Made by a program: the position numbers and the translations under genes. DNA of 64,000 bases from Promethearchaeota archaeon (GTDB lineage Archaea; Asgardarchaeota; Lokiarchaeia; Sigyniarchaeales; SOKP01). The stretch spans positions 43,224 through 107,223 of the forward strand of contig JBHLMQ010000008.1 of NCBI GenBank assembly GCA_048938005.1, written 5' to 3'. The notes beneath the pieces were generated by a model. It saw nothing but the letters and a program-made list of their open reading frames with translations, made no database searches and was not told where the DNA came from. Shown here piece after piece: positions 31,148-43,031 of the stretch. The first letter of the stretch is position 1. Each line of letters starts with the position of its first letter.

Positions 31148-34100
31148 ATGAAAATTAATAAAAAATATGACAGAAAGTCAAAAAATAAAATAAAATTCTT
31201 AGCAATTCTTTTATTCACATTAATTCTTACAACAACAATTAATATACAATTATTTACAATTTTTGGTAGAAATACAAGTAAAAATATTGTAAAAGATCCT
31301 ATGGAAAAATTATCTCTTTCTACCCCTTCAAACAATCTTCCTAATGCAGATTATTTTAATTATTATAAGGTTATAACCATTGATCACACAAAAGTTAATG
31401 GATCAGACCATCACAACTTTCCTGTTTTAATTTCTATTATTGACTCAGACTTGGATGACAAAACTCAGTTTGATGGTGATGATATCGCCTTTGCTAATAA
31501 TACTACTTGGTTGGACCATGAGATAGAACTATATAATCCTAGCTATAGTGCTACTCAAGCTCAATTGATAGCATGGGTCAGGATTCCCTTGTTATCTACT
31601 TCTAGTGATACTATAATATTCATGTTTTATGGTAACTCAACTATGGGCTCCCAAGAAAATCCAACAGGAGTTTGGAATACCAATTATAAGGGAGTATGGC
31701 ATTTAAAGGAAGATCCTGGTCCTGGAATTCCAGGAGATATTAAAGATTCAACTAGTAATAGTAATCACGGAACTGCTATTAGTATGGGCTCCAGTGATCA
31801 GGAACCAGGACAGATTGATGGTAGCTTAAATTTTGATGGAAATGCCGATCCTGATTATGTTAATATCAATAATATTGGCCCAGGAATAAAAACTATTGAA
31901 TTTTGGATGAATCCTAATACTCTCGGTAGTTCTGATTCTTATAATACAGGTTATAGGAGTCCAAGTGCAACTGGATATGACTATGATGAATGGACTAATC
32001 CACAAGACGCTTATAGCAGTAATAATATTAGAGCATCAGAATCGACTAATTATGACGATCAAGATTGGTACAACTTTAATTTTAATATACCTGCTGAGGC
32101 TACCATTGATGGAATTTTGGTGTCCATTGAAGCACATACCTCACAACAATACCAATCAACTGGATGTAGAGTTAGACTCTCTGGGAATGGGGGAATACGT
32201 TATACTAGTTATAAATCTCAAAGTTGGTATAGTACAATTGATTCATATAGATCTGTTGGTGGTTCGTCAGACACATGGGGGGAGTCGTGGTCACCCTCTA
32301 ATTTTTCTAATTCTAATTTTAGAGTTTGGTTAGAAAAAACAGGTTCTACTTATTACACTTTAAGTGTTGACCATATAAGGATTATTGTTTATTATAGTAT
32401 TTTATCTGATATACCCATAATTGATTTAAATGGCACTACTCAAATTTCTATTGATGCAAATAGTGGTGAAATAAAAACCCTTAGTTTCCCGGGCGCAACA
32501 AATATTTATGTTAACGGCGTAAATAGCTCGACTGTAACCGCAGGTGAATGGTATCATGTGGCAATTACAGATACAGTTGGCATTATTAGTTCGACTTTGG
32601 ATATAGCTAGGAATGCTTCAAGCTATTTTGATGGTACTATTGATGAGTTTCGTCTCTCCAACGTAGAACGTTCAGAAGATTGGATTACTGCTGAATACAA
32701 TAATCAAAAAGATCCTGGTAATTTTTTCTCAGTTGGAGGGGAAGAGACTCCACTTACCGATCTACAGGTTAATGCCACTGATTTATATGGCAATCCAATA
32801 CCAAATGTAAATATTTCTCTCTATAAAAATAATGATTTAATTAGGAGTGATATCGCAGAGGCTAATGGAAGTGTTATATTTGAAGATTTAATTTCTATTG
32901 AAGATAAATATAACTTTACTGTCTCCATGACATCAAATATTCTTCCCTATAAAAGTATAACTATTAATAGAACAACAGAAGCTATCCTTATAGAAGGAGC
33001 ATTTCAGACTATTAATTTAATTTGCAACATAAGCAGAAATATCTTTAATGTGGTAGATAATGATGGGGTTCCCCTTGATTCGGGATGGATAATAGTTGGT
33101 AATAGTTCAGATCCAATTCAGAATTGTACGATTGATAATTCAGGACATGCAACATTTCGATGGTTAAACACTAGTCCTTATCAATATAATTATACAGTAT
33201 GGTATCAAGATTTTAATTACAATCCGAAAAAAATTATAATAGCATCGGGGGATATATTTACACCAAATTTCGATGTCAATGTAACTGCGATCTTAACTAC
33301 AGTTAACTTTACAGTGTTAACTTATGATTACCCTTACACCCCTGTTAATGGTGCAAAATTAATACTAGACAAGCTTAGTCCAGTTGAAAATATAGTAAAT
33401 TTAACCACGAATTTAAATGGAAAAGCAACACTTAGATGGGTAAATTCTTCTGGAATAAATTCAAATTATTCCTTAAGAGTTAGTTTTTATGGACAATTCT
33501 GGGATTTTGAAATACCCGGTATGACTGGAGTAGTAGGGAAGACAAATTTTACTGTGAAAGCTGAAATTACTTATAATATAAGCATTCATTTCGCTCCAAC
33601 TGAGTTAGAAAAATTGGAAACAAAATTAGTATCTTTAAATCCAACAAATAATATTATTGTTGAATGGGGTTCGAAAATAAAATTAAGAGCTCTTTTGAAT
33701 GTTACCAAAGTACCTTCTGGACCTGAATATAAAGATTTACTAGGACCAACTTATGCAGATTCAATGAAATATCAAATATTTGAAGACACAACTCTCATTC
33801 AATCCAATATAATGTCTCCAGAAGATGATTATATTGGTAGACATCAGGTAGAAATTGAAACTGATGAGTTAGAAATTGAGACCATATATACACTTAAAAT
33901 AAGTGCTCAAAAATCTGGTTATGTTTTACCTCCAGATGTAATAATGTTTCTATACCTTAATGAAAATGAGTTAATATTAAACCAATCACAAAACGATGAT
34001 TCATCCCAATCAGTATATTGGCAAGAGAGTGTTGAAATGTCAGTAAAACCTTATGGTATAATTTCTGAATTTTCTACTTTTGAATATAATATTTATGATA

Positions 34101-37100
34101 TAAATTACGATACACCATTTAAGTTTTCAATTCCAGATATCTCAAACGATTGGAATTTATCACAGATTACCTTTAATATTTATGACATTATTTGGAATGC
34201 TCCACCCGATGATATAAATATTACTATTGCGGTGAATGGTTATGGAATCCTCGAAGTTTTTAATATTAGTAATCATGATGGCCACGATTATGCGCAAGGT
34301 ATATGGACAGGAATAGAGCTTAACATAGACAAAAGTAGTCCCACTGGTGATAACAGTTTTGAGTTTTCCATTGGAGGGACATTTTCTGGTAATATAGACA
34401 TTATAGCTGATGCCTTGTTTATTAGAGATAAAATTAATGTTCAATATTCAAGATTTAACATTACAGAGACTATATCTCTTTTAACTGCAGCTGAAGGATG
34501 GGCTATAAAAAATATTACTTTTGAACTCTATAACTGCTTCAATACTTCCAATTGGACACCAATAAATCCCTTATCTGACATTAATTTGAATATATCTACC
34601 AATGAAGGAATTAAATATGCAATGGATTCAGGAAGTTCTGGCTATGGAAAGTTAATCATAGATGATCGAATTATTTACCCTTTAGATAACCAATTCTTAT
34701 TCACCGTAGAAAGTAATCCAGATGTTATGTTTGATGTTATAATTAAAGTTGAATACATTCAAGAATTTCAGCAAAATCAATATCTAGAGACAATTTATAT
34801 ATCGAAGACAGAATATAACAATGGAGGAACTTTTCAAGTCAGAGTCGATGAGAAAGATTGGATTGAAGATTCTACAAAATTACTGATTAGTGAAATCTAC
34901 GACGGTGAAAATTATCTTCTTCCATCAGAAGTGGCAATGAATATTACAATTGGTGGAACCTCTTATAACGTTTCTGATGTTATTTTAGGGCAAGGAATTT
35001 TTTCATTAGAAAATTTAGATAAAGATACTATATACCAAGCTGTTATAAGCACAAACAAACCAACTATTTTCAATCTAAATTTTACAATAGACTACTCAAG
35101 AATGGAAATTTATGAAACAAAAGGAATTGTTACTTATATAATAGAAAAATCTGCTATATTTGGAACTGTTCAGTATAATGAGGATCTGGAATGTTATCTA
35201 CAACCTATAAATACAACTATACTCGATACCATAGATTATACTATAAGATTCACTGTTATTAAACAAAATTATGCTTCAGCTATAAAAGACTTAGATTTGA
35301 CTGTATTAGATCGTCTAACATTGATTAATGGATCTTCGGGATTCTTCAGAAAACCTGAAAATATTTATATTGGTGATGCTATTAATTTTTCTTTTGTATA
35401 TACTGATTTATTAAATGGAACTAAAATTACTGATTTAACAGCTCAATATTATATATGGGAGAAATATGATATTGATGGCAATGTAATTGCTAGTGGACAA
35501 GGAACTTTAGTCACTACTACCGATCAATTACATGTATTAGATTTTGATACTGAAAATTTAACTCTTGGAGAATATTTGTTAATTGCTACAATAGGTAAAA
35601 AAAATTATGAATATAAAAATGCCATAATTTCTTTAACTGTCAATAAAAGAACAATTATTCCTCTTCTCAACGATGGAATTAACCAAATAAATGTTAAAAA
35701 AGGAGTAACTGCTACTTTAAGATTAGAATTAACAGATCCTACAAGAGGGGATATTCCATTACAAAATGCAACAGTTTTATTGACTATAATGGGGAGGGAC
35801 TATGAATTTGAAGAAAGTGAGCCTGGTATATATATTTTTAATTTTCACACAGGCAATATAGATACATTTTTTAATCCAAAAACGTTTATAGGAAAAATTA
35901 ATATTTCTAAAGAAGATTATAAATCTGAAGAATTAACTATTACTATCGTTGTTGGAATGGATGAGATCTTTCCTGGTATACCTACATTTTATTTCTTAGT
36001 AATTGTGATTGGAATTCTTGGAATAGTGGGTAGTCTTGTAGCATATAGAGCATATAAACATGCTAAAATTCCTACATTTGTGAAAAAAGTTCGAGCGATG
36101 AAAAAAACTATTGATGGAGAAAAACCCATTTCAGAAGAGATTTTATATAGAGATAAAGAAGTATTTATTGGAGAAATTATAAAAAATAAATGGAAAGCAA
36201 TTGGATTATCCATAGAAGATATTTTTAGTATAAACCTTGAAAAAGAGAAAAAAGAACAAAAAATACAAAAGAAGATTTCTGAATCTGTTAGAGAGCATGA
36301 CAAAAAACCTCTTGGACTAGTATTAATGAAATGGGACGAAAAAATTGGCACTAATATCATAGCTAAATATCCCGAAGATCTCAAAATTACAACAAAAAGT
36401 TTAATGCAAGTATATAGCACCCATGAATATAGTGGTGAACAAGGTGTGATCACATTAATAACAGAATCATTAAATATTATCTCATATTACACTGGACCTG
36501 AGAGTGGTTATTATCTTCTCCTACTTTTGAATTTAGATGACGATCCTGATGTATATGAAGCGGGAATGGCAGATAATGTACGGATTATTTTAGAAAATTT
36601 GAAAGATGAGTCTTATTTACAACTGATTCCATCACTATTTCAGCGATTATCTGTATATCCATCGCTTAGTGAGGAGGAAATCCTTATCTCCCATTATCAA
36701 AATGGAATTAAACGAACAATTATTAATATTTTAAGAGAAGAAGGAGTAATTTCCAAATCTGAATTGGATATATGGCTCAAAGATAAATTTATTGGAGGAT
36801 TTTTCGACATCGACGCTATTTTGATGGATCTTATTAAAATGGAAATAATAAAAGTCGCTTCCATCAAAGGTTTGCCCTCTGAACTCATTTTTCTAATCAA
36901 AGATCTTTATATGCTTCGAATACCCCCAATTAAATTATTAGATAATCTTGTGAACCGTGGTTTGCCTTCTCAATTTGCTAAAGAATATTTAAATAATATA
37001 AAAGAATTTTTCCAAGATTATCATCCAACAGAAGAAGATAACCTTAAAATTATTAATGCATTAATCAATCCACAAGTTTTTGAGACTTTAAGATTATTGA

Positions 37101-37399
37101 GGACTGCGATTGTTACAAGACAAGATCTTGAAAAACTTAGAAAGAAGGGAGTTGATGATATTTATGGTGTTTTGAAATTACTTTGGGACAATAAAATGAT
37201 TAAAGTTTTCCATGATGATAAAGATAATGAATATTATGCACTTCTTTCTGATTTCTATATTGATTTTATCTTTCCAAAGTATCTTTTAAAAGCTGTTAAA
37301 ACAGCATATGAGCAAAAATCAAAAGTTAATAAAGTACTTGTTGAATATCTTAAAATTCTTGAAATTACATATCTCGATTTAAAAGCATTGGAAAAATAA
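31148..37399 (+). CDS. Giant single-pass receptor-like protein: DUF2341/LamG-like and beta-rich ectodomain, TM helix, cytoplasmic longin/uDENN-like region
   Basis: N-terminal hydrophobic segment; 'YYKVITIDHTKV...NFPVLI', 'GVWHL', 'FDGTIDEFRLS'; TM 'FYFLVIVIGILGIVGSLVAY'; cytoplasmic 'GLVLMKWDEKIGTNIIAKYP'. Confidence 0.75.
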   Translation: MKINKKYDRKSKNKIKFLAILLFTLILTTTINIQLFTIFGRNTSKNIVKDPMEKLSLSTPSNNLPNADYFNYYKVITIDHTKVNGSDHHNFPVLISIIDSDLDDKTQFDGDDIAFANNTTWLDHEIELYNPSYSATQAQLIAWVRIPLLSTSSDTIIFMFYGNSTMGSQENPTGVWNTNYKGVWHLKEDPGPGIPGDIKDSTSNSNHGTAISMGSSDQEPGQIDGSLNFDGNADPDYVNINNIGPGIKTIEFWMNPNTLGSSDSYNTGYRSPSATGYDYDEWTNPQDAYSSNNIRASESTNYDDQDWYNFNFNIPAEATIDGILVSIEAHTSQQYQSTGCRVRLSGNGGIRYTSYKSQSWYSTIDSYRSVGGSSDTWGESWSPSNFSNSNFRVWLEKTGSTYYTLSVDHIRIIVYYSILSDIPIIDLNGTTQISIDANSGEIKTLSFPGATNIYVNGVNSSTVTAGEWYHVAITDTVGIISSTLDIARNASSYFDGTIDEFRLSNVERSEDWITAEYNNQKDPGNFFSVGGEETPLTDLQVNATDLYGNPIPNVNISLYKNNDLIRSDIAEANGSVIFEDLISIEDKYNFTVSMTSNILPYKSITINRTTEAILIEGAFQTINLICNISRNIFNVVDNDGVPLDSGWIIVGNSSDPIQNCTIDNSGHATFRWLNTSPYQYNYTVWYQDFNYNPKKIIIASGDIFTPNFDVNVTAILTTVNFTVLTYDYPYTPVNGAKLILDKLSPVENIVNLTTNLNGKATLRWVNSSGINSNYSLRVSFYGQFWDFEIPGMTGVVGKTNFTVKAEITYNISIHFAPTELEKLETKLVSLNPTNNIIVEWGSKIKLRALLNVTKVPSGPEYKDLLGPTYADSMKYQIFEDTTLIQSNIMSPEDDYIGRHQVEIETDELEIETIYTLKISAQKSGYVLPPDVIMFLYLNENELILNQSQNDDSSQSVYWQESVEMSVKPYGIISEFSTFEYNIYDINYDTPFKFSIPDISNDWNLSQITFNIYDIIWNAPPDDINITIAVNGYGILEVFNISNHDGHDYAQGIWTGIELNIDKSSPTGDNSFEFSIGGTFSGNIDIIADALFIRDKINVQYSRFNITETISLLTAAEGWAIKNITFELYNCFNTSNWTPINPLSDINLNISTNEGIKYAMDSGSSGYGKLIIDDRIIYPLDNQFLFTVESNPDVMFDVIIKVEYIQEFQQNQYLETIYISKTEYNNGGTFQVRVDEKDWIEDSTKLLISEIYDGENYLLPSEVAMNITIGGTSYNVSDVILGQGIFSLENLDKDTIYQAVISTNKPTIFNLNFTIDYSRMEIYETKGIVTYIIEKSAIFGTVQYNEDLECYLQPINTTILDTIDYTIRFTVIKQNYASAIKDLDLTVLDRLTLINGSSGFFRKPENIYIGDAINFSFVYTDLLNGTKITDLTAQYYIWEKYDIDGNVIASGQGTLVTTTDQLHVLDFDTENLTLGEYLLIATIGKKNYEYKNAIISLTVNKRTIIPLLNDGINQINVKKGVTATLRLELTDPTRGDIPLQNATVLLTIMGRDYEFEESEPGIYIFNFHTGNIDTFFNPKTFIGKINISKEDYKSEELTITIVVGMDEIFPGIPTFYFLVIVIGILGIVGSLVAYRAYKHAKIPTFVKKVRAMKKTIDGEKPISEEILYRDKEVFIGEIIKNKWKAIGLSIEDIFSINLEKEKKEQKIQKKISESVREHDKKPLGLVLMKWDEKIGTNIIAKYPEDLKITTKSLMQVYSTHEYSGEQGVITLITESLNIISYYTGPESGYYLLLLLNLDDDPDVYEAGMADNVRIILENLKDESYLQLIPSLFQRLSVYPSLSEEEILISHYQNGIKRTIINILREEGVISKSELDIWLKDKFIGGFFDIDAILMDLIKMEIIKVASIKGLPSELIFLIKDLYMLRIPPIKLLDNLVNRGLPSQFAKEYLNNIKEFFQDYHPTEEDNLKIINALINPQVFETLRLLRTAIVTRQDLEKLRKKGVDDIYGVLKLLWDNKMIKVFHDDKDNEYYALLSDFYIDFIFPKYLLKAVKTAYEQKSKVNKVLVEYLKILEITYLDLKALEK

Positions 37400-37452
37400 T
37401 AAAAATTCTTAAAAACTACAATTTTTTTCTATTTTTTTTGAAAGTTTAATAT

Positions 37453-37527
37453 ATCCAACCTCGTGCAGAGTCTTCATCAAATAACTTCCCATAAAGGTTT
37501 TTTTTATTTGATTCATTATTATGGATT
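37453..37527 (-). promoter_or_regulatory. Eukaryote-type SECIS element (AUGA_AA_GA) in a 3' UTR
   Basis: RNA reads AUGA-AUCAAAUAA-AAAAAA-CCUUUAUGGG-AAG-UUAUUUGAU-GA-A: 9-bp helix above a UGAN/NGAN core, with apical adenines. AUGA begins 15 nt after the stop of a gene with an in-frame UGA. Confidence 0.8.
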
Positions 37528-37530
37528 TTT

Positions 37531-38451
37531 TTAGTCGCAATCTTCAGCTTGCTGGAGATTAATTTTTATGAAAGCTTCTTCTTGTAAATTTCGTTGCTCT
37601 GATTTCACAGATCTATTCACTTGATGTAAGTGTTTCATAGCATTGATTTTTCCCTCTTTAATGTTATCAATTAGTTCCTCTTTGCTAAAACCACCAGAAA
37701 TAACGAGAGCAGTTTGAAAAGTGTGCTCAGGTTCTATAGTCATAAATTCAATCTGTAACGCAGATAAAATTTCTCCTGGTTCTCCATATAAAATATTCGA
37801 AAGATTCATTCTATTTTGATCAATGTGAAAATCTTTTGTTAAGCATGTCTCGTAGTTTGTTGATTTAGAAATGGGAGAAAATCCACCATGTAAACCAGTA
37901 TCATCATATTGGTAAATAATATCGTTTTCTTTGTCATAACCAGATAGATCATTATCAAAACCTTCAAGTCCATTTATATCAAAATCAAAAACAAAATACA
38001 TTGAAAAATCTTTCAAGGCAAAATCCGAAATATTTTTTATAGTAAAGAAAGTATTGATATATGGTACTTTAGGCGGATTGAAAATGTCTTTGTACACACG
38101 AACAAATTGTTTTTTTTCTAACCCTATTGATTTTAATTTATTTTCCCGCTCCAATTTCTTTAGATACTCCGTAATATTGAAATCTAACGTAATTCTACTT
38201 ATAGCAGTACCAGTACGAGTATTAACCATATTATATATTGGTGTTGGTTCGATATTTTTTAGAATCACTGGAATTGTACCAATTTTCTTGCCTTCTAATT
38301 TAAAGCTAAACCAAGGGCCAGTTAAATCTTGTTCACTAAGATATATAAGATATTTTCCTTTGTATGTTAATTCTTTAATTGAAAATCCCATGACATATCC
38401 AGCAGCGTTTCAGGTTGCAAGTACATCGTGCCAATTTACCTTTAGGACTAT
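37531..38451 (-). CDS. Candidate selenoprotein of unrecognised family (306 aa, UGA at codon 14)
   Basis: GGAGG RBS at 38466..38462, ATA at 38451, then VLKVNWHDVLAT-UGA(38412..38410)-NAAGYV in frame with the 286-aa ORF. SECIS lies just downstream. Confidence 0.72.
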
Positions 38452-38557
38452 ATTTTTCTAACCTCCTTTATTAATTTTGAATTCTTTATTTTATTTCGAT
38501 TATATTATCACTTATTTAAAAGAATGAAAATTCATAAAAAAGTTTCTAGCTATAAAG

Positions 38558-39541
38558 TTAGAGAGCTTCAATTTCTCTGTAGGCCATATATAAAAAAGCA
38601 TCATTAACATTCTCGCCCGTCAAAGCTGATGTTAGAATATAATGAAGATCATATTGTTTAGCAACTTCCTTTATTTCTTCTTCACTTACAACTATCTCAT
38701 CTACTAAATCGGATTTGTTTCCAATCAATACTATCGGAATATCCCTTTCTACTGATTTTTTAATGTCATTGTACCATTTTTTTACACTTTCTAGATTATT
38801 AGGACGAGTTCTATCAATAACTATAAAAGCAGCATTTGCTCCATCGTAGAATTTTTTTCGATAAGGAGCGATTTGAGCAATCTGACCACCTATATCCCAG
38901 ATTATAAAATTTATCAGAGTTGATTCACTTATATTAACTCTCTTTTCTGAAACTTGCACTCCGAGAGTTGAAATATAATCTTTTTTGAATTCATTTTCAA
39001 CAAATCTACGTATTAATGATGTTTTCCCAACTCTATAATCTCCAGTTAAAATAACTTTATTTGTAAACTCCCCTTCTAGTCTAGGGAGTTCTCCTCCACG
39101 TGTTTTCGATAATGCTCGAATTATTTCAGGAATTTCTGGTGAAATATTTTCATTTCCATCTATAACTTGTTCTACTTTAGTTGCTATATGTTCTGAATAT
39201 ACTTTTAATTTGATATCGGTTATTGATTTGGAAGCAACCGTTGTTAAGATTGAATGAGGTCCTTGAGAAGAGATTGCAAATTTTTTATCACCTGTTGTAG
39301 TAATGTTAAAAAAATCTCCATGAGTTCCAAATTCTGTCTCAATTCTATCTATATAATTATCTAACATAGCCGATATCGCACCTATAATTACATCTGACTC
39401 CTCTTCTTCCTTTTCTCTAAATTCTGAATCAATAATAAAGCCATCCCTATCGCAAATTGTCACAGCAATAATGCCTTCGATATCACTCATATAATTTTTT
39501 AAAATTTCTTTCAATAGCATTAAATTTGGACGTTTTTCCAT
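38558..39541 (-). CDS. Roadblock-domain + Rab-like small GTPase fusion
   Basis: 'ICDRDGFII' roadblock; GDYRVGKTS, YISTLGV, WDIGGQ, NKSD, TSAL. Confidence 0.9.
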   Translation of the reverse strand: MEKRPNLMLLKEILKNYMSDIEGIIAVTICDRDGFIIDSEFREKEEEESDVIIGAISAMLDNYIDRIETEFGTHGDFFNITTTGDKKFAISSQGPHSILTTVASKSITDIKLKVYSEHIATKVEQVIDGNENISPEIPEIIRALSKTRGGELPRLEGEFTNKVILTGDYRVGKTSLIRRFVENEFKKDYISTLGVQVSEKRVNISESTLINFIIWDIGGQIAQIAPYRKKFYDGANAAFIVIDRTRPNNLESVKKWYNDIKKSVERDIPIVLIGNKSDLVDEIVVSEEEIKEVAKQYDLHYILTSALTGENVNDAFLYMAYREIEAL

Positions 39542-39800: not shown

Positions 39801-40784
39801 CTAAAGGTTCTCAATAACTCTATAGGCAATATATAAGAAAGCATCATTAACGTTCTCGCCCGTCAAAGCTGATGTAAGAATATAATGAAAATCAAATTCT
39901 TTCGCAACTTTCTTTATTTCTTCTTCACTTATAACTAATTCATCTATTAAATCAGTTTTATTTCCGACTATTACAACAGGAATATTTGTGGGTAATGATT
40001 TTTTGATATCCTTATACCATTTCTCAATGCTATATAAGTTGCCCGAGCGAGTTCTATCTATAATAATTAAAGCAGCATTTGCTCCATTGTAAAATTTTGC
40101 TCTATATGGTGCCATTTGATGAACTTGACCACCAATATCCCAAATGATAAAGTTCATTTTGGTTGTTTCACTTAACTTTACTGATTTTTTGCTGATTTGT
40201 ACTCCTAATGTAGAAATATAATCTTTTTCAAACTTATTTTCTACAAATCTTCTTATTAAAGATGTCTTTCCTACAGAATAATCACCAGTTAGAATAATTT
40301 TTTTTGAGTACTCTCCATCTAAACTTGGAAGTTGACCTCCTCGAGTCTTTGATAGTGCTTTTATAATTTCAGGGATTTTAGGCGAAACCTCTTCATTTCC
40401 ATCTAAAACTAGTTCAATTTTAGAAGCAACATGTTCTGAATAAACCTTTAATTCTATATCTGTGGTTGATTGTTCTGCTATTGTGGTTAATATTGAATTT
40501 GGTCCCATTGAGCTAAAAACAAACTTCTTGTCTCCTGTCTCTGTGATATTAAAAAAGTTATCTGTAGTACCAAACTCAGCTTTAATTCTGTCTATATATG
40601 TATCAAGTATGGCAGAAAGAGCACCAATTATCGCGTCTGATTCCTCTTCATTTTCTTGTTTTGATTCTGAAGCGATAATAAAACCATCTCTATCGCATAT
40701 GGCTACACCTAAAATACCCTCTACCTCATTAAAATAATTTTTTATGATATCTTTTAAAAGTCTAGTACTTGGAAGCTTCTCCAT
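39801..40784 (-). CDS. Roadblock-domain + Rab-like small GTPase fusion (tandem paralog)
   Basis: Same 327-aa length and motifs as 38558..39541. Confidence 0.9.
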   Translation of the reverse strand: MEKLPSTRLLKDIIKNYFNEVEGILGVAICDRDGFIIASESKQENEEESDAIIGALSAILDTYIDRIKAEFGTTDNFFNITETGDKKFVFSSMGPNSILTTIAEQSTTDIELKVYSEHVASKIELVLDGNEEVSPKIPEIIKALSKTRGGQLPSLDGEYSKKIILTGDYSVGKTSLIRRFVENKFEKDYISTLGVQISKKSVKLSETTKMNFIIWDIGGQVHQMAPYRAKFYNGANAALIIIDRTRSGNLYSIEKWYKDIKKSLPTNIPVVIVGNKTDLIDELVISEEEIKKVAKEFDFHYILTSALTGENVNDAFLYIAYRVIENL

Positions 40785-41120: not shown

Positions 41121-43031
41121 TTAATTTAGAGTTTTCAAATAATTCATAATATGTTTTCGATCCTTATCTGAGATTCGATATAAATCAAAAACTAAAGTAT
41201 CAATTTTTTTCTGAAGATTTTCCATTTCATCAATGTTTTTTAAAATTTTTTTTACAAGTTCTCCTATTTTTTTTGCTTTCTCCTTTTCTTTATCAGTATT
41301 AGGGATTTTTATCGGAAAATCTTTTATTTTTTCAATTAAAATTCTTGGAAATAATTTTTTATATGAACCAAATGATTTTATGAAATAATAAGACAATAGA
41401 TCAGAATTCAAAATTCCTAGGAAATAAAAATTATTAAATTCGGGGATATAAGATTTTTCAATTTTTAAATTATAAAAAGATTGAGATGTCAATGATAAAT
41501 TCTTATCATAAGTGGCACATATTCTGTTATTTTGGCTTATTTGCCTTATAATTATTCGATCTTCATAATAACTTAAATCTTTATAAACTATTCCGATTTT
41601 TGATGTGTCAATATATTTATATTGAGTTTTATCATAACGGTTAATTGAATATAAATACAATTTATAATTCTCTTTTATCGCATCATCAGGAAGCGTGTCA
41701 TAAATAATTTTTTCAATATTTTGTTTATTTAAAAGAGAATTACAATCATGACATTCTAATATTTTTTTAGGAACTGGTGTATATTTCTTACAAGTTTCAC
41801 AGAATATTATCTCTCCAGTTTTAGTTAACTCAACTCCTCGACTTAATACAAATTTAAATTCATTTCTTTCATTTAAATCCTTTAATTTTGGAAAATTAGT
41901 TTTTAAATGTTCAATAAGCGATATATCAGTTTTATTCAAATAAATTAAGAACTTATAGTCCCATTTTTCTATAACTTCTTGTGGAATTATCTTCTCCGGA
42001 ATATTTAATACTTTTAATTTAATCTGGTTCTTTTTTCTTTCTAATATGTTTTCTTCCTTTTGCAAAATTAAAATAATATTTGAAACAATAGGATCATTGA
42101 ATTTTGGACCTGTATGATAGATCTCCTTGATTTTTGTGGTATTATATATAAATTTTCTGATAATTGAACGATATGATAAAGCTAAAAGCGAATCTGGAAC
42201 AATGTATCCAAACATCCCCCGATTTTTTAAAATACTTATTCCAAGTTCTATAAATATCTGATAGTAATCATACTGACCACAATTAGTTTCAAAATTACTA
42301 TTATCAATTAATTTTCTCTGGTCAATTGGAATATCTCTAATAAATAAATAGGGTGGATTCCCTACAACATAATCATATGTTTCTTTATTATTGATTGTTA
42401 ATGCATTAAAATTTTTTATATTAAACTGTGGTAAATGATAATTAGGCTCAGACTCTCTAATGATTCTAAAAATGTCAAATAGCACAAAATATATATTGAT
42501 CTGACATAAAATACAGGCAATCCAATTAATATCTATCCCCCAAATATTATTTTTAACCCTTGATATTATTGCTTTAGCTTCTTCAACCGTTAATTCAGAA
42601 ATCTTTTTTCGTTTATAAATTTCAAGGCATCGGTTAATCAAAATCATTACTATCTGGATAATAAAACTTCCAGAACCACAGCTAATATCAATTATTTTTT
42701 TAGCTTCAATCTTATTTAGATAATTATAGCCTACAGCATTTAAAATATAATTAACTACTGAAGCAGGAGTATAGAATTCACCTAACTTCTTTTTCTCTTT
42801 ATGGTTTCGAGTTTTTTCATATAAAGCACTAAAAATGTCAAATCTTTGATTACTTAAGTCAAAAAACACTCGATTTTTTTTTCTTTCTTTGACAATATTT
42901 AGTCCACTAAAACTTTCGATAATTCTATTAAGAAAGACTTCATCCTTAGGAATAATGAAGTTATTTTTATAATATTCTTTTAATTTTCTAAATATTTTTT
43001 CTTTTTTCAGGTATTCAATGAAATCCTGCAT
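41121..43031 (-). CDS. N6-adenine DNA methyltransferase (gamma class, TaqI/Eco57I-like) with C-terminal target recognition domain
   Basis: 'LGEFYTP', 'IDISCGSGSF', 'VVGNPPY', 'FLGILNS'. Confidence 0.9.
   Translation of the reverse strand: MQDFIEYLKKEKIFRKLKEYYKNNFIIPKDEVFLNRIIESFSGLNIVKERKKNRVFFDLSNQRFDIFSALYEKTRNHKEKKKLGEFYTPASVVNYILNAVGYNYLNKIEAKKIIDISCGSGSFIIQIVMILINRCLEIYKRKKISELTVEEAKAIISRVKNNIWGIDINWIACILCQINIYFVLFDIFRIIRESEPNYHLPQFNIKNFNALTINNKETYDYVVGNPPYLFIRDIPIDQRKLIDNSNFETNCGQYDYYQIFIELGISILKNRGMFGYIVPDSLLALSYRSIIRKFIYNTTKIKEIYHTGPKFNDPIVSNIILILQKEENILERKKNQIKLKVLNIPEKIIPQEVIEKWDYKFLIYLNKTDISLIEHLKTNFPKLKDLNERNEFKFVLSRGVELTKTGEIIFCETCKKYTPVPKKILECHDCNSLLNKQNIEKIIYDTLPDDAIKENYKLYLYSINRYDKTQYKYIDTSKIGIVYKDLSYYEDRIIIRQISQNNRICATYDKNLSLTSQSFYNLKIEKSYIPEFNNFYFLGILNSDLLSYYFIKSFGSYKKLFPRILIEKIKDFPIKIPNTDKEKEKAKKIGELVKKILKNIDEMENLQKKIDTLVFDLYRISDKDRKHIMNYLKTLN

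Follow-up and report, generated by a model that had tools for sequence, protein, structure and literature searches.

Why does a UGA codon stand in frame ahead of the annotated start of an archaeal gene for a hypothetical protein? The question is raised by a locus on the minus strand of a 64,000-nucleotide stretch of DNA (the window, whose positions are used throughout) from a Promethearchaeota archaeon, contig JBHLMQ010000008.1, the host genome comprising 3.72 Mb in 101 contigs with 29.8% G+C. A first-pass annotation of the bare sequence had proposed that the gene encodes a selenoprotein of a new family, with the UGA read as selenocysteine (Sec) and with a eukaryote-type selenocysteine insertion sequence (SECIS) in the 3' untranslated region (UTR). 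The comparative analysis described here makes it very likely that this is a genuine, previously unannotated selenoprotein gene with Sec at residue 14.

In the explanation that we favour, translation would start at a near-cognate AUA at position 38451, 10 nucleotides below a GGAGG, and the UGA at codon 14 would be decoded as Sec, directed by a Lokiarchaeal SECIS of the kink-turn type located 15 nucleotides past the stop codon. Translation would then continue through the annotated AUG to give a 306-residue product. The features of the gene are the following.

38513-38520, minus strand: TATA-box-like word TTTAAATA, about 62 nucleotides upstream of the AUA
38461 to 38466, minus strand: Shine-Dalgarno-like GGAGGT (GGAGG at 38466-38462, 10 nucleotides 5' of the AUA)
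38449 to 38451, minus strand: proposed near-cognate start codon AUA, 13 codons ahead of the Sec codon
38392 to 38451, minus strand: predicted N-terminal extension of 20 codons, IVLKVNWHDVLAT-U-NAAGYV, outside the public gene calls
38410 to 38412, minus strand: proposed Sec codon UGA, residue 14
38389 to 38391, minus strand: internal AUG, the start in public annotations (Met invariant in 29 of 29)
37531 to 38451, minus strand: proposed full coding sequence, 306 residues and the stop codon TAA (37533-37531)
37537 to 37539, minus strand: codon of Cys305, the conserved C-terminal Cys

The annotated open reading frame (ORF; 38391-37531, minus strand) encodes 286 amino acids. Upstream of its ATG the frame runs through a single TGA to an ATA below the GGAGG, just as the first-pass annotation had described. 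The order is AUA, 12 sense codons, UGA, 6 sense codons and the annotated AUG, and translation across the UGA reads IVLKVNWHDVLAT-U-NAAGYVMGF. An in-frame TAG (38460-38458), separated from the AUA by two codons, closes the frame upstream. No in-frame ATG, GTG or TTG is found in the window from this TAG to the TGA, nor from the TGA to the annotated ATG. At E <= 0.001, 395 homologues were found in public databases; the top 120 of these are 281-287 residues long and start at the internal AUG, and those among them that are named carry the label 'hypothetical protein'. The public gene calls are truncated because the UGA and the non-AUG start hide the true N-terminus. The annotated 286-residue protein very probably starts 20 codons earlier, at the AUA. 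The TATA-like word suggests that the selenoprotein gene may have its own promoter in the 166-nucleotide gap behind the adjacent GTPase gene.

Orthologues were collected by a six-frame search of 36 other genomes of the genus and of other genera of the order. The gene was found in 33 of the 36 genomes, with 74-91% identity, and the UGA is invariant in all 35 same-genus orthologues. We calculated the mean column entropy at each codon position for the 29 copies without insertion. The values for the first, second and third positions are 0.72/0.21/1.38 before the TGA, 0.54/0.31/0.87 from the TGA to the ATG, and 0.23/0.15/0.88 over the initial 20 codons of the annotated ORF. Third-position wobble thus continues in one frame on both sides of the UGA, which indicates coding periodicity throughout, and none of the 29 copies has a canonical start codon between the UGA and the AUG.

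The proposed start codon is conserved as well, being ATA in 32 and ATT in 2 of 34 same-genus orthologues and AUG in none. A GGAGG-type motif lies 7-9 nucleotides ahead of it (counted after GGAGGT), and in 32 of the 34 copies an in-frame stop upstream of the ATA precedes any canonical start. Because the distance to GGAGGT differs between copies by numbers of nucleotides not divisible by three, nothing upstream is coding; at one locus (L067) the leader is shorter by one codon. As a matter of speculation, a weak but conserved start might throttle initiation so that ribosomes avoid queueing behind a slow UGA 13 codons further on.

Homologues in the other genera of the order have 24-32% identity, and at 13 loci their N-terminus aligns residue by residue with the leader. 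Nine of these loci have Cys in the UGA column, within the motif M-x(4)-DYETIC(V/I)NC(K/Q)EKGYSFGY (CxxC), and an ATG 13 codons ahead of the second Cys; the AUG of the Cys forms occupies the same position as the AUA here. The other four have TGA in the same column, preceded by a Cys (CTVU, CSIU, CTIU and CKWU), and ATG or GTG starts. Over the distant loci the AUG or GUG lies 13-18 codons upstream of the aligned column. In an alignment of cluster representatives, residue U14 likewise pairs with the second Cys, which is present in P0128, P0129, P0132, P0146 and P0151. The prediction that homologues would be conserved upstream of the annotated Met, with Cys or Sec at the aligned residue, was therefore borne out. 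The statement of the first-pass annotation that the protein has no CxxU motif holds for the studied genus, but not for the wider family, which has CxxC or CxxU. The first Cys of the motif is replaced in the studied genus by Leu, Phe, Val, Ile or Met, and we infer that this genus lost the first Cys of an ancestral CxxC/CxxU motif. SepSecS was found in the six Cys-form genomes searched, so the Cys state does not stem from loss of the Sec trait; among the four CxxU-form genomes, two have SepSecS and the other two gave weak or partial matches. Behind the Cys forms an element of the Lokiarchaeal SECIS type was searched for and not found. Three CxxU loci from other families of the order (L053, L054 and L064) have a conserved short hairpin, CCAAG-UNGCC-CUUGG, in a gap of about 51 nucleotides to a convergent gene.

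These data bear on a rival explanation, in which the 13-codon frame that ends at the UGA is a separate upstream ORF encoding a leader peptide, the protein is made from the AUG, and the 3' element is a kink-turn or terminator unrelated to Sec. Such an arrangement would agree with the absence of a canonical start codon from the leader, with the public gene calls, which begin at the AUG in the best 120 of the 395 homologues, and with a GGA located 9 nucleotides before the AUG, which could serve as a weak ribosome-binding site. It would also agree with 5 of 54 species in which leader and ORF are both conserved and lie in different frames. On the other hand, the six codons from UGA to AUG evolve as coding sequence in the frame of the ORF, and the leader can be matched as a homologous sequence, position by position, with the start of the full-length Cys forms, whose Cys falls in the column of the UGA. 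Moreover, the 3' element has the specific features of the host's SECIS elements, described below, and a SECIS behind a gene without another in-frame UGA would have no target. Taken together, we regard a separate leader peptide as improbable and retain UGA decoding as Sec.

The element in the 3' UTR is composed as follows.

37453 to 37526, minus strand: candidate SECIS element as a whole, in the 3' UTR
37526-37522 / 37457-37453, minus strand: helix 1, AUCCA/UGGAU
37516-37513, minus strand: AUGA, starting at the 15th nucleotide past the stop codon TAA
37512-37504 / 37484-37476, minus strand: helix 2 of 9 base pairs, AUCAAAUAA / UUAUUUGAU
37503-37498, minus strand: apical A6, unpaired
37497-37495 / 37490-37488, minus strand: ministem CCU/GGG with a 4-nucleotide loop
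37487-37485, minus strand: AAG, end of the apex
37475-37474, minus strand: GA after helix 2, followed by AGA
37460 to 37470, minus strand: junction hairpin CUC-UGCAC-GAG, between the GA and the 3' strand of helix 1

The AUGA, the 9-base-pair helix, the GA, the apical adenines, the CCU/GGG mini-helix and the AUCCA/UGGAU helix all lie where the first-pass annotation had placed them, and RNAfold returns the described structure as the minimum-energy fold. The element hardly varies among 33 orthologous 3' UTRs, and the sequence beyond it diverges. Over these orthologues 92.2% of the cells are paired, compared with 25-48% with slid partners, five pairs change on both sides, and none of 500 shuffles reaches the covariation score. 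Two of the three pairs of the junction hairpin covary (U-A to C-G in five orthologues, C-G to U-A in three). The AUGA is present in 31 of the 33 and is AGGA in the other 2, a variant also seen in 1 of 36 genuine SelD elements. Helix 2 has nine Watson-Crick pairs in the window, eight of which are kept in 32-33 of the 33 orthologues; the core-proximal pair deviates from standard pairing in 23 of 33, and likewise in 8 of the 36 SelD elements. The apical A-run and the A before the final G are invariant, the G itself is present in 32, and the GA 3' of the stem in 33 of 33. The ministem varies with pairing kept (CC/GG, UCA/UGA, UCU/AGA), as judged by eye in the printed orthologues.

Lokiarchaeal SECIS elements (lokiSECIS) have been described as consisting of AUGA, a 9-base-pair stem and GA after the stem, near the stop codon, with an apex that opens with five adenines and closes with AG (Mariotti et al. 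2016, PMC4989117). For the eukaryotic-SECIS-like type II elements of Asgard archaea, a stem of 7-15 base pairs, a bulge of 4-12 nucleotides, a ministem of 2-8 base pairs and a loop of 2-6 nucleotides have been given (Huang et al. 2024, PMC11227280). The candidate has all of the features and lies within all of the limits set out in these passages of the two papers.

The candidate can also be compared with elements of its own genome. Right behind the stop codons of the host's two SelD genes we found the arrangement GAUG-UCU-AUGA, 7 base pairs, AAAA, ministem, GA, 5 nucleotides, small hairpin and CAUC. The 36 SelD elements of the genus fit this layout, with 96.9% of cells paired and eight pairs changing on both sides, and the candidate has the same layout except for its 9-base-pair stem. 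A strict descriptor (ATGA, a perfect stem of 7-10 base pairs with at most one G-U, an A-rich apex and GA) matched nine genomic sites; ten dinucleotide shuffles gave 2.1 on average (range 0-4). The nine include the two SelD genes, two MvhD/FlpD genes (PF02662, 142 and 141 bits; two Sec codons each) and the candidate; the others are two behind ORFs with an in-frame TGA, one in an AT-rich intergenic region and one inside an ORF. As most of the sites lie behind known selenoprotein genes, the descriptor finds more than chance. The SelD, MvhD and candidate elements and two others share a lower helix and a hairpin with a GCA-containing loop between the GA and the lower helix. The gene downstream converges from the other strand, so the SECIS can serve the selenoprotein gene alone. 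On these comparisons of sequence and predicted pairing, the 3' UTR element belongs with the Lokiarchaeal SECIS elements already known. The 'eukaryote-type SECIS' of the first-pass annotation thus stands as a SECIS, but is more precisely a Lokiarchaeal one, with a 9-base-pair stem, a ministem and an extra junction hairpin.

Could the UGA and the hairpin be products of chance in an AT-rich intergenic region, or remnants of a decayed N-terminus? The low G+C content of 29.8% makes AT-rich hairpins and ATGA words common, and a loose pattern gave 58 matches. Conservation over 35 species with codon periodicity, the Sec/Cys alignment and the conservation and covariation of the 3' UTR already contradict this explanation, to which we give practically no credence.

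Several observations nevertheless weigh against Sec decoding from an AUA start. The case rests on sequence comparison and predicted structure. The gene lacks a canonical start codon, initiation at AUA or AUU being a prediction, and ATA or ATT starts behind GGAGGT show no general excess in the host genome. The folding energy of the SECIS is ordinary (z = -1.5, 13 of 200 shuffles folding as well), and the covariation comes mainly from the small hairpin and the ministem, helix 2 being nearly invariant. An Rfam scan of 37300-38700 at E <= 10 returned no SECIS family, only insignificant matches to snoRNA and miRNA families. With a covariance model (R1) built from the 36 SelD SECIS elements alone, the candidate ranked first in the window, at 14.7 bits and E = 0.2, and was undistinguished genome-wide. 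Behind the four CxxU forms, no lokiSECIS-type element was found within 700 nucleotides downstream. Finally, in the five species mentioned above, leader and main ORF are in different frames, unfit for simple read-through. With respect to the covariance model, its genome-wide search found SelD only and missed the MvhD SECIS elements, and it is therefore too narrow as a test. Standard SECIS models and SECISearch3 are described as missing accepted Asgard elements (PMC4989117, PMC11227280).

The Sec machinery on which the proposal depends was found in the host genome. A tRNA-Sec scores above the Rfam threshold (61.7 bits) and is adjoined by SepSecS (382 bits), the gene for a SelB-like elongation factor (231.9 bits, slightly short of the curated 242) lying at a distance of 4 kb. 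There are also a KTI12/PSTK homologue (118 bits) and two SelD genes, each with one in-frame TGA. From the presence of tRNA-Sec, SepSecS, SelB-like factor, PSTK and SelD we conclude that the organism decodes Sec.

Other candidate elements were noticed in the same genome. A small ORF at C80:580-831 (minus strand; L229) contains one TGA in frame (..EPT-U-PSTC..); its product is predicted to have a membrane helix and has no Pfam family. A perfect lokiSECIS follows 23 nucleotides on (near C80:559), with a 9-base-pair stem, an 11-nucleotide loop, a lower helix and a junction hairpin, and this ORF is possibly another unlisted selenoprotein. At C17:134470-134973 (plus strand; L230), an ORF without a Pfam family contains two adjacent in-frame TGAs (..VVHAD-UU-ADV..), and a lokiSECIS-like hairpin lies 11 nucleotides behind its stop (C17:134982). 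Here two consecutive Sec residues may be encoded, or else the TGAs are a double stop and the hairpin is due to chance. Near position 12365 of C73 (plus strand) there is a SECIS-like element with one stem mismatch, a lower helix and a UUGCAA junction hairpin; no ORF of at least 60 codons ends within 200 nucleotides upstream of it.

The five species with a broken frame carry a hairpin insert right after the Sec codon (L024, L035, L042, L043 and L226, of 54 genomes of the genus). The insertion site corresponds to 38409/38410 of the window; the window's own gene has no insert, and the hairpin therefore leaves the main conclusion unaffected. The inserts are 29, 28, 31, 32 and 31 nucleotides long. 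Each consists, after the TGA, of AUCUUC, 13-17 variable and mostly self-complementary nucleotides and GAAGCAAGA, followed by the usual AAY. An outer stem CUUG/CAAG takes in the UG of the UGA, and is followed by a 3-nucleotide bulge, AAU, and a stem CUUC/GAAG. The stems are conserved, and the inner part varies while remaining self-complementary. All five species retain leader, UGA, NxxGYV codons and SECIS. The hairpin is single-copy in each genome and patchy among close species, four copies on the gene tree requiring four separate changes. A pattern search over the genus gave seven matches, two of them at unrelated places. Among the matches listed in a contig scan for the hairpin termini, one was this gene and the others were unrelated. 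In DNA contigs from four sediment runs, one contig identical to the L024 locus spans the hairpin and no junction removing it was found, the remainder being uninformative owing to mixed related species. Among the sequencing runs looked up for L024, none of RNA was listed as containing the locus.

If the full protein is still made in these species, either the hairpin must be cut out of the RNA or ribosomes must pass over it. An archaeal bulge-helix-bulge intron was considered and rejected: the hairpin has one 3-nucleotide bulge and a 4-base-pair helix, no second bulge, and excision of the loop plus 4 nucleotides would leave the frame broken. Neither frameshift sites nor matched take-off and landing codons explain all five cases. 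It seems to us rather unlikely that the locus holds two further recoding features, namely an obligatory AUA start selected throughout the genus and a frame-breaking hairpin that coexists with leader, UGA and SECIS. If this were true, it would point to a mini-intron or a translational bypass coupled to Sec decoding, neither of which is, to our knowledge, known in archaea.

The same species bear on a further reading, in which the gene has two products, an AUA-started selenoprotein and an AUG-started core of 286 residues, in a ratio set by start strength and selenium supply; the five hairpin species would then make only the core and a short selenopeptide. It draws on the invariance of the AUG, on an AUA that is kept weak and never becomes AUG in 34 species, on family members of 219-230 amino acids without the N-terminal motif or the C-terminal Cys, and on the leader, UGA and SECIS retained beside the hairpin. 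No strong ribosome-binding site precedes the AUG, however, and initiation there would have to be assumed. We take this two-product arrangement to be a tentative possibility, distinctly less probable than Sec decoding itself, which it extends rather than excludes. On this reading the internal AUG may serve as a further start, from which a form lacking Sec is made.

What kind of protein would carry this Sec? Neither the protein nor 18 relatives gave a match to Pfam (E <= 1), NCBIfam or PDB sequences, and a PDB sequence search with the family profile gave none either. There were 32 matches among 1.84 billion cluster representatives, and the close homologues that carry a source name are archaeal. 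The ESM Atlas returned only Asgard hypothetical clusters and a weak lead to the supersandwich of glycoside hydrolase (GH) family 94. An AlphaFold2 model from a 19-row alignment has a mean predicted local distance difference test score of 89.5 and a predicted template-modelling score of 0.88, the first 20 residues being less sure (70 and 59). Foldseek gave E values down to 5e-9 against supersandwich domains, and VIA-align gave Z scores of 18-20 with a root-mean-square deviation of 2.4-3.2 A over 212-237 residues (1ulv, 1lf6, 2cqs, 7w2t, 8rf9). We infer from the model a free-standing beta-supersandwich, like the non-catalytic N-domain of GH15, GH94 and GH116 enzymes. The (alpha/alpha)6 catalytic domain is absent from the model, in which the protein ends at 306 residues with three short helices. 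The first-pass annotation had described a beta-rich protein unlike the known archaeal selenoproteins, which agrees with this fold and with the lack of Pfam and NCBIfam matches. Conserved motifs of the core are GPWFSF, DFD(I/V)xG..D...YD and GPxD...LQW.

In the model, Sec14 would lie in a loop after the first strand. A Cys is found within the last three residues of all 35 orthologues. It co-occurs with the N-terminal motif in P0128, P0129, P0132, P0146, P0151, the studied protein and the CxxU forms; five short forms have neither, and two CxxCxxC forms lack the C-terminal Cys. The Cys of the C-terminal tail is a likely partner of Sec14 for a selenenylsulfide: with the first Cys of the motif lost in the genus, Sec14 and Cys305 would be the redox pair. 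The earlier proposal that this Cys is a resolving partner is indirectly supported by its co-occurrence with the N-terminal motif, which agrees with a Sec14-Cys305 pair but falls short of proving one.

Two genes lie upstream on the same strand, as the first-pass annotation had stated.

38558 to 39541, minus strand: Roadblock and Ras-like GTPase gene directly upstream (Pfam Ras, 131 bits)
39801 to 40784, minus strand: second Roadblock and Ras-like GTPase gene (Pfam Ras, 128 bits; Robl_LC7 weak)

They are tandem paralogues, 71% identical, with an N-terminal Roadblock/LC7-like domain and a Ras-family GTPase domain. A homologous GTPase gene is located 157-227 nucleotides upstream in all 30 same-genus loci, and in other genera the homologue is preceded by one such GTPase gene. 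In another family, three genomes have the order GH2 glycosidase, Roadblock-Ras GTPase, Cys form, unknown protein and PhoU-domain protein. A complex prediction for the adjacent GTPase and the 286-residue core scored 0.00, which speaks neither for nor against binding. Conserved gene order is what connects the protein to GTPase signalling, a speculative link; equally speculatively, the protein might be a redox-sensitive, possibly sugar-binding partner or regulator of the Roadblock-Ras GTPase. Elsewhere in the neighbourhood, a 2083-residue ORF (31148-37399, plus strand) runs towards the selenoprotein gene from the other strand; it has a signal-like segment at its N-terminus and numerous Asn-rich repeats, and its sole Pfam match is a weak CarboxypepD_reg. 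The GTPase pair is preceded by a gene (41121-43031, minus strand) of the Eco57I/N6-adenine DNA methyltransferase type, whose product has a TaqI-like specificity domain.

No known organisms are more closely related to eukaryotes than the Asgard archaea, whose SECIS elements are a proposed link between archaeal and eukaryotic Sec decoding. The family described here appears confined to Asgard archaea among the matches returned by our searches, and its gene order ties it to Roadblock-Ras GTPases, which matter for the question of how eukaryotic signalling arose. With a Sec at codon 14 and a SECIS 15 nucleotides past the stop, the gene could provide a compact natural test case for Asgard Sec decoding. 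SECIS-first searches in such genomes should reveal more selenoproteins, the host genome alone holding two further candidates.

How new is the family? Five selenoprotein families were reported in 2016 (Mariotti et al., PMC4989117). A later survey of 409 Asgard genomes, which relied on homology to known families, names seven for Asgard archaea (Huang et al. 2024, PMC11227280): SelD, FrhA, HdrA, FrhD, a Prx-like protein, a homologue of the AhpF N-domain and a DsbA-like protein, a list repeated in a 2026 review. Those other than SelD are hydrogenase or heterodisulfide-reductase subunits or thioredoxin-like proteins, all found by homology. The present family is absent from the seven-family lists of Huang et al. 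and of the review, on which the supplementary tables might bear, and a full-text literature search returned no paper that describes it as a selenoprotein. The supersandwich is neither a thioredoxin nor a hydrogenase nor a flavoprotein fold. The claim of a new family thus holds against the seven listed, and the gene would represent an eighth Asgard selenoprotein family, whose fold has no counterpart among the selenoproteins on the published Asgard lists.

Several known systems resemble parts of this one. The start codon recalls bacterial infC, which has a conserved AUU start and is autoregulated by IF3. The likeness lies in a near-cognate start kept by selection behind a good ribosome-binding site, whereas control by bacterial IF3 belongs to infC. 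The hairpin of the five relatives recalls translational bypass elements, such as those of T4 gene 60 and the mitochondrial 'byp' elements, and archaeal bulge-helix-bulge introns. With bypass elements it shares a short hairpin right behind a stop-type codon, a length not divisible by three and a patchy distribution, but it differs in having no matched take-off and landing codons; with splicing motifs it shares a 3-nucleotide bulge beside a 4-base-pair helix. Rdx-type selenoproteins such as SelW have CxxU with Sec at about residue 13, after the first beta-strand of a thioredoxin-like fold. A Sec near the N-terminus is common to SelW and the studied protein, but the fold differs and the first Cys is absent in the studied genus. 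GH15 glucoamylase and glucodextranase, GH94 phosphorylases, GH116 enzymes and cyclic beta-1,2-glucan synthase have the N-terminal beta-supersandwich fold in common with it. Identity to these domains is 10-16%, and here the domain stands alone, with an N-terminal Sec/Cys motif and a C-terminal helical tail that carries a Cys.

With lokiSECIS elements as published (Mariotti et al. 2016; Huang et al. 2024), the candidate element has in common the AUGA, the 9-base-pair stem, the A-led apex, the GA and the position close to the stop codon, and with the SelD (SPS) elements the ministem. It differs from both in combining the standard-form 9-base-pair stem with a SelD-form ministem in an apical region of 19 nucleotides, and its sequence is far enough from the SelD elements for their covariance model to give it no more than 14.7 bits. 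The seven listed Asgard families share with the studied protein the organisms, the recoding machinery, the occurrence of Sec/Cys pairs and the redox-type CxxU/CxxC. They have no sequence or fold relation to it, and the non-canonical start is a feature of the studied gene.

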